Positions 7,016 through 54,892 of a stretch of 64,000 nucleotides of DNA are shown piece after piece (position 1 is the stretch's first letter; each line of letters starts with the position of its first letter). Both the position numbers and the translations under genes were made by a program. The DNA is from Escherichia coli (GTDB lineage: Bacteria; Pseudomonadota; Gammaproteobacteria; Enterobacterales; Enterobacteriaceae), in NCBI RefSeq assembly GCF_041248615.1, contig NZ_CP158426.1, one strand, 5' to 3'. The notes below the pieces were generated by a model. That model was not told the origin of the DNA. It did no database searches and saw only the letters and a list, made by a program, of their open reading frames with translations.

Positions 7016-7338
7016 TTTTTTGCACGCCCGTATTCAACGGCTTCTTTAAGGAGTTCATTTTCCATCGTTTTTTTGCCGAGCAGGCGCTGGAGTTCTTTAA
7101 TCTGCTTCATGGCAGCAGCAAGTTCAGAGGCAGGAACGACCTGCTCTCCTGCGGCCACAGCAGTAAGACTTCCCTCCTGGTATTGCTTGCGCCAGAGAAA
7201 TAACTGGCTGGCTGCCACACCGTGTTGCCGGGCAACAAGGGAGACCTTCATTCCCGGTTCAAAACTCTGCTGAACAATAGCGATCTTTTCCTGTGTAGTA
7301 CGCCGTCTGCGTTTCTCCGGTCCTAAGACATCAATCAT
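6973..7338 (-). CDS. insC: IS2 InsC (orfA)
   Basis: ORF 6973..7383 contains [22 protein letters not shown]...; start placed at that Met (121 aa); overlaps insD as expected for frameshift fusion. Confidence 0.85.
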
Positions 7339-7429
7339 CTGCTCTCCAATGACTAGTCTAAAAACTAGTATTAAGACTATCACTTATTTAAGTGATATTG
7401 GTTGTCTGGAGATTCATGGGGCCAGTCTA

Positions 7430-7569
7430 CCTGTGTAGTACGCCGTCTGCGTTTCTCCGGTCCTAAGACATCAATCATCTGCTCTCCAATGACTAGTCTA
7501 AAAACTAGTATTAAGACTATCACTTATTTAAGTGATATTGGTTGTCTGGAGATTCATGGGGCCAGTCTA
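7430..7569. repeat. perfect tandem duplicate of the terminal 140 bp of IS2 (IRL end plus insC 5' end)
   Basis: 7430..7569 is base-for-base identical to 7290..7429. Confidence 0.85.
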
Positions 7570-7782
7570 ATGTGTATCCGGGATGGATGTTTACCAGAAC
7601 CTTCTCTGTTCCAGTGTGTGGAGTTTTACAGAAGAGGCGACTGTATGCAACTCTTGCCCCGTAACTGTCTTTATTCGTTTCTCCACACTCTCCGGACATT
7701 GTAAATTCCAGATGTGTGGCAGTGTGTTTTTCGTAAATCGTACACAATGCATTTTTACACGGAGTTCAGCCAGTCGTATCAC
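7570..7782 (-). pseudogene. probable N-terminal remnant of the ISL3-family transposase, beyond the IS2 insertion
   Basis: Short frameshifted minus-strand ORFs (7520..7747, 7591..7782) adjacent to the IS2 junction; assignment by position and weak similarity only. Confidence 0.35.
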
Positions 7783-11751: not shown

Positions 11752-11827
11752 TGGTGCCCGGACTCGGAATCGAACCAAGGACACGGGGATTTTCAATCCC
11801 CTGCTCTACCGACTGAGCTATCCGGGC
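11752..11827 (-). tRNA. pheV: tRNA-Phe (anticodon GAA)
   Basis: Reverse complement reads GCCCGGATAGCTCAGTCGGTAGAGCAGGGGATTGAAAATCCCCGTGTCCTTGGTTCGATTCCGAGTCCGGGCACCA (76 nt); pheV assigned by yqgA-speC context. Confidence 0.95.
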
Positions 11828-52594: not shown

Positions 52595-53674
52595 ATGTCT
52601 AAGATTTTTGATTTCGTAAAACCTGGCGTAATCACTGGTGATGACGTACAGAAAGTTTTCCAGGTAGCAAAAGAAAACAACTTCGCACTGCCAGCAGTAA
52701 ACTGCGTCGGTACTGACTCCATCAACGCCGTGCTGGAAACCGCTGCTAAAGTTAAAGCGCCGGTTATCGTTCAGTTCTCCAACGGTGGTGCTTCCTTTAT
52801 CGCTGGTAAAGGCGTGAAATCTGACGTTCCGCAGGGTGCTGCTATCCTGGGCGCGATCTCTGGTGCGCATCACGTTCATCAGATGGCTGAACATTATGGT
52901 GTTCCGGTTATCCTGCATACCGACCACTGCGCGAAGAAACTGCTGCCGTGGATCGACGGTCTGCTGGACGCGGGTGAGAAACACTTCGCTGCTACCGGTA
53001 AGCCGCTGTTCTCTTCTCACATGATCGACCTGTCTGAAGAATCTCTGCAAGAGAACATCGAAATCTGCTCTAAATACCTGGAGCGCATGTCCAAAATCGG
53101 CATGACTCTGGAAATCGAACTGGGTTGCACCGGTGGTGAAGAAGACGGCGTGGACAACAGCCACATGGACGCTTCTGCACTGTACACCCAGCCGGAAGAC
53201 GTTGATTACGCATACACCGAGCTGAGCAAAATCAGCCCGCGTTTCACCATCGCAGCGTCCTTCGGTAACGTACACGGTGTTTACAAGCCGGGTAACGTGG
53301 TTCTGACTCCGACCATCCTGCGTGATTCTCAGGAATATGTTTCTAAGAAACACAACCTGCCGCACAACAGCCTGAACTTCGTATTCCACGGTGGTTCCGG
53401 TTCTACTGCTCAGGAAATCAAAGACTCCGTAAGCTACGGCGTAGTAAAAATGAACATCGATACCGATACCCAATGGGCAACCTGGGAAGGCGTTCTGAAC
53501 TACTACAAAGCGAACGAAGCTTATCTGCAGGGTCAGCTGGGTAACCCGAAAGGCGAAGATCAGCCGAACAAGAAATACTACGATCCGCGCGTATGGCTGC
53601 GTGCCGGTCAGACTTCGATGATCGCTCGTCTGGAGAAAGCATTCCAGGAACTGAACGCGATCGACGTTCTGTAA
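52595..53674 (+). CDS. fbaA: fructose-bisphosphate aldolase class II
   Basis: Start at MSKIFDFVKPGVITGDDVQKVF (359 aa). Confidence 0.95.
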   Translation: MSKIFDFVKPGVITGDDVQKVFQVAKENNFALPAVNCVGTDSINAVLETAAKVKAPVIVQFSNGGASFIAGKGVKSDVPQGAAILGAISGAHHVHQMAEHYGVPVILHTDHCAKKLLPWIDGLLDAGEKHFAATGKPLFSSHMIDLSEESLQENIEICSKYLERMSKIGMTLEIELGCTGGEEDGVDNSHMDASALYTQPEDVDYAYTELSKISPRFTIAASFGNVHGVYKPGNVVLTPTILRDSQEYVSKKHNLPHNSLNFVFHGGSGSTAQEIKDSVSYGVVKMNIDTDTQWATWEGVLNYYKANEAYLQGQLGNPKGEDQPNKKYYDPRVWLRAGQTSMIARLEKAFQELNAIDVL

Positions 53675-53698
53675 GATATTCCTTTCTGCTTATCTCAA

Positions 53699-53722
53699 GG
53701 CCCGCTCTGCGGGTCTTTTTTT
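53699..53722 (+). terminator. fbaA intrinsic terminator
   Basis: CCCGC-TCT-GCGGG hairpin followed by TCTTTTTTT. Confidence 0.6.
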
Positions 53723-53738
53723 CGCCAAAAGCAAAATT

Positions 53739-53840
53739 GCCTGATGCGCTACGCTTATCAGGCCTACACGTATCCTGCAATATATTGAATTTGCAGGTTT
53801 TTGTAGGCCGGATAAGGCGTTCACGCCGCATCCGGCATGA
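53739..53840. repeat. REP/BIME repeats
   Basis: GCCTGATGCGCTACGCTTATCAGGCCTAC and GTAGGCCGGATAAGGCGTTCACGCCGCATCCGGCA units. Confidence 0.55.
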
Positions 53841-54031
53841 CAAAGCGCACATTGATATCTGTCTGAGCCCCGCTCTGCGGGGATTTTTTCGCCAAAAGCA
53901 AGGTGATTCAGATGAGAAATCTGTGATCTATTTGGCAAAATTATGCTTTATTGTTTACCCTTGTCAGACTGCCCGTCATAAGGCGGCGGAGTGTATTTCT
54001 CCATTTTGAGTCAGTTGAAAAGGAATATTGA

Positions 54032-54892
<861 letters not shown>

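Follow-up and report, generated by a model that had tools for sequence, protein, structure and literature searches.

Ever since the 1980s it has been an open question by what means repetitive extragenic palindromic (REP) elements move. The stretch of Escherichia coli DNA analysed here (the window, 64,000 nt of contig NZ_CP158426.1) carries, between fbaA and mscS, a bacterial interspersed mosaic element of type 1 (BIME-1) placed between two copies of the fbaA terminator. BIME-1 elements are defined as a z1 and a y REP joined by a long conserved L linker, often with an IHF site, and occurring in single copy (PMC3333891). The mobiliser proposed for REPs and BIMEs is the REP-associated tyrosine transposase (RAYT, or TnpA-REP), which is related to IS200/IS605, acts on DNA hairpins and cuts at the hairpin feet (PMC3333891), and its transposition is described as proceeding without flanking direct repeats (PMC3333891, PMC2817692). 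For the YPAL/RU-2 elements of Yersinia, which are 168 bp long, target duplications of 3-26 bp have been described, at or adjoining dyad symmetry (De Gregorio et al. 2006, via PMC2229807).

The element at fbaA has the REP composition, order and orientation of the E. coli BIME-1, its L linker (Rfam ES036, with a 19-mer found at 27 other loci), its single copy number and its position at the 3' end of a transcription unit, and it differs in lacking the left-end motif and in its flanking repeat, which is 37 nt long and holds a complete terminator, compared with 20-25 nt elsewhere. With YPAL/RU-2, as summarised in that source, it shares a small, palindromic, non-AT-rich body of similar size, the absence of TA ends and duplications of variable length; the sequence family and the genus are different and 37 nt exceeds the range given there; the likeness is one of behaviour only. 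As for the RAYT/IS200-IS605 model, a duplication of hairpin length is predicted by it only if each strand is cut on its own, at opposite hairpin feet. The locus also resembles tandem intrinsic terminators and REP-containing 3' untranslated regions (UTRs), in that two hairpin and U-tract signals follow a highly expressed gene in series and both give RNA 3' ends, but the second fbaA terminator is a sequence copy of the first, apparently made together with the repeat element.

These features are very probably explained by an insertion in an ancestor of the genus Escherichia, in which a BIME-1 (other names are RIB, RIP and the E. coli REPIN) entered immediately downstream of the intrinsic terminator of fbaA. 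The insertion would have copied a 37-nt target made up of the hairpin, the T-run and 12 further nucleotides, leaving the element between two terminators, and the two copies would later have recombined with each other. The features of the locus are as follows.

53697..53722, plus strand: intrinsic terminator 1, with a 9-bp stem, a TCT loop and T7 (terminator scan, fold, Term-seq).
53698..53734, plus strand: direct-repeat copy 1, 37 nt, AGGCCCGCTCTGCGGGTCTTTTTTTCGCCAAAAGCAA, the putative original target including the fbaA terminator (repeat search; outgroup terminator at the same position).
53735..53865, no strand assigned: BIME-1, 131 nt of putatively inserted DNA with the left-end motif missing or replaced (in short alleles, missing in a single block along with one copy of the repeat).
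53739..53767, plus strand: Y-type REP, a palindromic unit, GCCTGATGCGCTACGCTTATCAGGCCTAC (inverted repeats; present at 27 other BIME-1 loci).
53768..53802, no strand assigned: L linker with the conserved core GCAATATATTGAATTTGCA (Rfam ES036 match; 19-mer common to other BIME-1 loci).
53803..53836, plus strand: Z1-type REP, GTAGGCCGGATAAGGCGTTCACGCCGCATCCGGC (inverted repeat; same unit at other BIME-1 loci).
53837..53865, plus strand: right-end motif, 29 nt, ATGACAAAGCGCACATTGATATCTGTCTG, with the consensus ATGAACAAAGCGCACTTTGTCAACAATCTG elsewhere (recurs beside the Z1-type REP at other loci).
53866..53901, plus strand: direct-repeat copy 2, 36 nt, AGCCCCGCTCTGCGGGGATTTTTTCGCCAAAAGCAA, the putative duplicated target (repeat search; absent wherever the BIME is absent).
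53868..53889, plus strand: intrinsic terminator 2, with a 6-bp stem, a TCT loop, A and T6 (terminator scan, fold, Term-seq).
52595..53674, plus strand: fbaA coding sequence, class II fructose-bisphosphate aldolase (open reading frame; annotated as fbaA in matching E. coli genomes; 53674 corresponds to K-12 3070165).
54032..54892, plus strand: mscS coding sequence, the downstream gene (open reading frame; annotation in matching genomes).

The stretch between fbaA and mscS is 100% identical to positions 3069700-3070300 of E. coli K-12 MG1655. Hairpin 1, AAGGCCCGC-TCT-GCGGGTCTT, lies directly 3' of fbaA at 53697-53717, with T7 at 53716-53722, and hairpin 2, CCCCGC-TCT-GCGGGG, lies 168 nt further 3' at 53868-53882, followed by A and by T6 at 53884-53889. 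Both were called terminator-like by the terminator scan (5 sites in 900 nt compared with 1.1 expected), and the predicted folding energies were -14.1 kcal/mol (z -4.3) for hairpin 1 and -11.6 kcal/mol (z -1.85) for hairpin 2, indicating that each copy has the GC-rich hairpin and following U-tract of an intrinsic terminator. The direct repeat consists of the terminator hairpin, the T-run and 12 further bases, with CGCCAAAAGCAA after the T-run. Its two copies are 89% identical over 36-37 nt, non-structural bases included, and differ by three substitutions and one T, two of the substitutions turning a G-T pair into a C-G pair. An exact block of 18 nt, TTTTTTCGCCAAAAGCAA, is common to both; with three mismatches allowed it was found at exactly two sites in the window, where 0.15 were expected, and two or more sites were found in 0 of 100 shuffles. 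The original prediction, that the fbaA terminator reappears downstream with its T-run and with two REP units in between, was thus borne out, and the repeat proved longer than had been noted (37 and 36 nt, with the T-run and 12 further nucleotides).

Between the two repeat copies stands a single BIME-1 unit, extragenic and located between the stop codon of fbaA and the start of mscS. The arms of its REPs (53754-53768 and 53802-53816) are inverted and 93% complementary, and each REP is itself a palindrome. The linker, which in BIME-1 is about 34 nt long, matches Rfam ES036 on the minus strand (53760-53802; 47.3 bits, gathering score 37.6), while the Z1 REP gave a partial match to naRNA4 below threshold. 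The core GCAATATATTGAATTTGCA corresponds to a putative IHF-site region, going by the literature on the family. The labels Y and Z1 follow the classification given in PMC3333891 and general usage. No repeat features, and hence no official REP number, are present at this locus in the RefSeq K-12 annotation.

The boundaries of the element are given on the right by the end of the family right-end motif and on the left by a point 4-5 nt before the Y REP. In the end motifs of BIME-1, ..ACTGATGACAAACGCAAAA on the left and ..GCGCACTTTGTCAACAATCTG on the right, the right one is diverged at this locus and the left one is absent or replaced by T7-CGCCAAAAGCAA; both end motifs are present in only 13 of 28 BIME-1 loci, hence they are not strictly required. 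Since a family motif makes up the 29 nt on the right-hand side of the Z1 REP, the whole 131-nt insert is BIME-1 material and the direct repeats abut the element. A longer duplication, relating the fbaA 3' UTR to the sequence before hairpin 2 (GATAT..CTG..TCT), was also considered and was rejected, the stretch being the BIME-1 right-end motif of other loci. When the Z1 REP and its tail were used as the query, about 1,180 genomes without the fbaA copy still matched 80% or more of it at some other place; three of these matches fall in further REP clusters with the tail CATGAACAAAGCGCACTTTGTCAACAATCTG (yggL-yggN, aldB-yiaW and yhjE-yhjG), and the tail was also found at many metagenome loci.

To place the insertion, the spacer was compared with that of outgroups and other Escherichia. 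A GTDB scan with the fbaA C-terminal codon pattern gave eight loci and misses Salmonella and Klebsiella, whose proteins end in FKELNAIDVL; these two outgroups were taken from cluster members and an exact-protein look-up, and a search for MscS homologues listed only near-identical E. coli proteins. Among Escherichia, the comparison covers E. coli, E. albertii, E. whittamii, E1V33 and MOD1-EC7003. Salmonella enterica and Klebsiella pneumoniae (L016 and L017) have one terminator directly 3' of fbaA and no BIME, and in Entomohabitans (L007), where the BIME is again lacking, the only terminator, TCTCAGGCCCGC...GCGGGCTTTTTATTGCCAA, is a clear homologue of copy 1. The one-terminator state is therefore ancestral. 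The terminator-BIME-terminator arrangement was found in E. albertii and E. whittamii, in the latter (L011) with the second hairpin degraded and the T-run and CGCCAAAAGCAA kept, and in MOD1-EC7003 up to the contig end, which falls inside the second hairpin. In Escherichia sp. E1V33, three terminators and two BIMEs were found, the sequences of the two BIMEs differing by 1 nt, and this is the only two-unit form seen. The short form is present in L006, a divergent record that bears the label E. coli. These distributions suggest that the BIME and the second terminator appeared together, on the Escherichia stem.

Within E. coli, 5,425 of 5,426 complete genomes matched the region, and 3,725 of these have the full 551-nt query. 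In a spread sample, the genomes without it have a form spanning 384 nt, shorter by 167 nt or one repeat period. This short form, with one terminator and no BIME, accounts for about 1,700 genomes, or about 31% of E. coli. All nine short alleles that were read consist of the copy-1 hairpin, T7, CGCCAAAAGCAA and then GGTGAT, which in the long form is the flank 3' of copy 2; short alleles thus carry exactly one repeat copy, as does an unoccupied site. Two terminators without a BIME were not found in any of the sequences examined (short alleles, outgroups and other Escherichia). As for a three-terminator allele in E. coli, all 25 top matches span 412 nt, which is the two-terminator form, in a search that could not separate two- from three-terminator alleles by coverage.

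To see whether the duplicated hairpin recurs elsewhere, metagenome sequences were scanned with the 19-mer linker core, giving 120 loci, of which 28 enterobacterial BIME-1 loci were left after duplicates and unrelated matches were removed. In many of these, the element is flanked on both sides by a GC-rich hairpin that is specific to the locus and lies immediately beyond the conserved end motifs (left ..GAGACTGATGACAAACGCAAAA, right ..GCGCACTTTGTCAACAATCTGAG), which are imperfect inverted repeats of one another. The left and right flanks were locally aligned within each locus and, as a control, in 756 cross-locus pairs. Same-locus similarity reached at least the 99th percentile of the control in 8 of the 28 loci, the fbaA locus being the highest, and in these eight the repeat lies at the element ends, stopping 25-28 nt short of the Y REP and resuming 30-33 nt beyond the Z1 REP. 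When only loci with both end motifs and only the 40 nt outside the motifs were considered, 7 of 13 exceeded the 99th percentile. The duplicated hairpin at these other loci is 20-25 nt long and is the hairpin only. Empty and filled sites were cleanly paired at three of these loci.

metE-ysgA: empty in K-12, with one hairpin, CCGGGTGGTAATACCACCCGG; filled in a related contig, hairpin-BIME-hairpin, +170 nt.
ymdF-rutG: empty in E. coli W; filled, +174 nt, in 1,734 genomes, K-12 among them, repeat CACCGCCGGTAAyCCCGGCGGT.
mog-satP: empty in strain AR_451; filled in 467 genomes.

In all three pairs, the filled site equals the empty site plus a BIME-1 and a second copy of the whole hairpin, with the element between the hairpin and the T-run. 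The fbaA locus differs from these three in that the T-run and 12 nt are also duplicated, so that both copies are complete terminators. Judging from these comparisons, BIME-1 insertion appears to be marked repeatedly by the duplication of a terminator hairpin specific to the locus.

Term-seq data for MG1655 (Adams et al. 2021, PMC7815308, supplementary file 1) were mapped onto the window to locate RNA 3' ends in vivo. Ends at K-12 3070119 and 3070118 (window 53720 and 53721), inside the T7 of hairpin 1, were found in LB at OD 0.4, LB at OD 2.0 and M63, with mean reads of 160,555, 54,607 and 120,854, respectively. An end at K-12 3069950 (window 53889), the last T of the T6 of hairpin 2, was found only in LB at OD 2.0, with mean reads of 44,903. 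Both terminator copies therefore mark real RNA 3' ends, and copy 1 is the main stop of fbaA, whereas copy 2 is either a secondary stop or a stable processed end, reached by read-through or processing in late growth. Since there is a 3' end after hairpin 2 in LB at OD 2.0, part of the fbaA mRNA in that condition has BIME-1 in its 3' UTR.

The later history of the locus was followed with a comparison and tree of 799 flank positions in 16 E. coli sequences and 4 other Escherichia, with the following outcome. The short allele of A3024 differs by one SNP in the 799 positions from the long allele of SI-NP020 and is nested in the long clade, so at least one recent independent loss is needed. The remaining short alleles fall into two or three basal groups, which are explained equally well by several losses and by a single old loss after which the long form was re-imported. 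The copy-1 hairpin is kept in all short alleles, as is expected if exchange takes place in the longest identical block, the 18 nt that lie 3' of the hairpin differences, and the reciprocal product would have the structure that is seen in the E1V33 allele. Between the copies, recombination or slippage in replication within the 18-nt block would accordingly set the number of 167-168-nt units, which is zero in about 31% of E. coli, one in the window and most E. coli, and two in E1V33; this change of copy number by unequal exchange or slippage is suggested by the allele structures. Excisions of a whole BIME-1 among strains were reportedly described by Bachellier and colleagues in 1997, and the presence or absence of this BIME-1, an element of a known kind, among strains fits such excision.

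The proposal that a REP/BIME insertion duplicated the terminator is thus supported by the strain alignment, the single terminator of the outgroups, the exact abutment of repeats and element and the recurrence at other loci. The comparison of fbaA-mscS spacers across strains, which had been put forward as its check, agrees with it, the BIME and the second repeat copy being present together or absent together in every sequence compared. It was refined in two respects: the event appears to be old, on the Escherichia stem and not at strain level, and the short allele of A3024 is better read as a secondary loss than as an unoccupied site.

Several other explanations were weighed against this insertion. 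That the two hairpins are alike by chance, or by convergence of independent terminators, would draw on the GC-rich stem and T-run that all intrinsic terminators have by definition, but it is refuted by the 18-nt exact match, the identity that extends to non-structural bases, the shuffles and the perfect linkage of presence and absence with the BIME, and its probability is practically nil. Tandem terminators are common after highly expressed genes, so the pair could be an ordinary local duplication, or have stood there already, with the BIME-1 landing between them later; the three-terminator allele of E1V33 does show that unequal exchange occurs at this locus. This is very improbable, as no examined sequence has two terminators without a BIME, the outgroups have one, the repeats stop exactly at the element boundaries, and hairpin-BIME-hairpin arrangements with single-hairpin empty sites occur at three unrelated loci. 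A tandem duplication of the terminator and BIME as a unit, followed by deletion of the second BIME, or a CGCCAAAAGCAA part that is a remnant of the BIME left end, is quite unlikely. The resemblance of CGCCAAAAGCAAAA to the left-end consensus GACAAACGCAAAA, the lack of a proper left-end motif and the tandem amplification of the unit in E1V33 would favour it, whereas a counterpart, TTGCCAAC, follows the single terminator in the BIME-free Entomohabitans, two events are needed where one suffices, and the hairpin-only duplications at other loci are left unexplained.

The strongest of the rivals, which we still regard as unlikely, holds that the short alleles are no deletions but an original state, never occupied, which basal E. 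coli lineages have kept, and that homologous recombination spread the long allele among Escherichia species and into groups of E. coli. Most short alleles are basal in the 799-nt flank tree, the divergent L006 is short too, and the sequence of a short allele is indistinguishable from that of an unoccupied site. However, the long form is common to E. albertii, E. whittamii and the E1V33 lineage, outside E. coli, and A3024 sits on a long-type haplotype at a distance of one SNP, which calls for a recent loss or a very short conversion tract. This rival also concerns only the later history and leaves the reading as an insertion with target duplication unaffected.

Other observations weigh against the insertion with target duplication itself. 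Most short alleles stand on basal flank haplotypes, so the direction of change within E. coli is partly open. The fbaA locus is atypical, with a 37-nt repeat that includes the T-run and 12 nt and with the left-end motif missing, and since CGCCAAAAGCAAAA loosely resembles the left-end motif GACAAACGCAAAA, part of the repeat could be derived from the element. About half of the complete BIME-1 loci have no recognisable duplication, for which decay or another mode of insertion would be needed, and because the hairpins are palindromic, direct and inverted orientation are indistinguishable at three of seven loci. Finally, no known enzyme fits, the RAYT/IS200-IS605 model predicting no duplication.

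From these comparisons we infer that the insertion itself gave rise to the duplication, and by what mechanism. In the preferred one, each DNA strand would be broken once, the two breaks lying at opposite feet of the target hairpin, and fill-in would follow. A single-strand nuclease that recognises hairpins and acts once per strand would give a stagger of exactly the hairpin length; alternatively, an extruded cruciform might be cleaved at its base, with the capped ends then opened and filled in. We know of no transposase that makes staggered cuts of such length. Integration of BIME-1 at GC-rich terminator hairpins through such opposite-feet breaks, leaving a structure-defined target duplication of 20-37 nt, may be a rule in Escherichia, but this is put forward tentatively and is doubtful as a generality. 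Neither a duplicated terminator nor a hairpin-sized target duplication at E. coli BIME-1 was found in Ton-Hoang 2012, Nunvar 2010, Bertels & Rainey 2011, Park 2021, Delihas 2011 or the 2026 preprint on REP 3' UTR function; an earlier description is possible, the BIME/RIB/RIP papers of the 1990s lying outside this scope.

Further observations were made on the element family and the spacer. In complete BIME-1 ends from metagenome contigs (L031-L132), the left end reads GAGACTGATGACAAA and the right end, reverse-complemented, reads CTCAGATTGTTGACAAA, forming imperfect terminal inverted repeats, so that the whole BIME-1 is one long imperfect palindrome of about 150 nt, similar to a MITE. The linker of the fbaA BIME-1 reads CGTGATCTCTGCAATATATTGAATTT[G/T]CATGCTT in E1V33 (L009:7819-8400) and E. 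whittamii (L011), compared with CACGTATCCTGCAATATATTGAATTTGCAGGTTTT in E. coli and E. albertii, while the flank sequence, contrary to this linker sharing, puts E. albertii further from E. coli than the E1V33 and E. whittamii lineages; conversion of the BIME sequence or exchange between lineages may account for the conflict. In E. coli Eco_24-2013 (L150:440-780), a degraded BIME-1-like element with the altered linker GCAATTTATTGAATTTTTAGG was found 3' of metE, followed by a different hairpin and then a different downstream gene. Upstream of mscS (53952-53961, within 53902-54031), the motif TTGTTTACCC is kept in Klebsiella and Entomohabitans, with TTGTTTACCT in Salmonella and only GTTAGTTACCC in Chimaeribacter, and this conservation holds while the rest of the spacers is unrelated; the motif probably belongs to the promoter of mscS or to a site for a regulator.

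Elsewhere in the window, a 140-nt unit is repeated in tandem at 7290-7576 (2.1 copies, the first two identical), within a region annotated in matching genomes as an IS3-family (IS2-like) transposase. The duplicated form was matched with at least 80% query coverage in only 6 of 5,426 genomes, the other rows listed being shorter by about one 140-nt unit, and among the matches listed the only full-length match at 100% was NZ_LT599825.1. The window is not colinear with K-12 throughout and is probably from a different strain; K-12 coordinates would put this repeat inside yghJ. A tRNA gene lies at 11755-11827 on the minus strand, and the insertion sequence is probably inserted about 4.2 kb away from it.

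For E. coli, a frequent 167-nt difference in the length of the fbaA-mscS spacer is explained by the insertion at fbaA, and the transcripts of fbaA have two genuine end points, of which the second would have been created by a mobile repeat. The general footprint, if it is undescribed, is of more interest than the locus itself. A target duplication of hairpin length would be a checkable footprint of the entry of BIME-1/REPINs into the genome that can be counted genome-wide; it suggests that terminator hairpins are preferred as targets, limits the geometry in which the moving enzyme can cut and supplies built-in direct repeats that would make insertions reversible. If true, integration by breaks at opposite hairpin feet would be a rule that the current RAYT/IS200-IS605 model does not predict, and it would explain both the position of BIME-1 at the 3' ends of genes and its precise loss.

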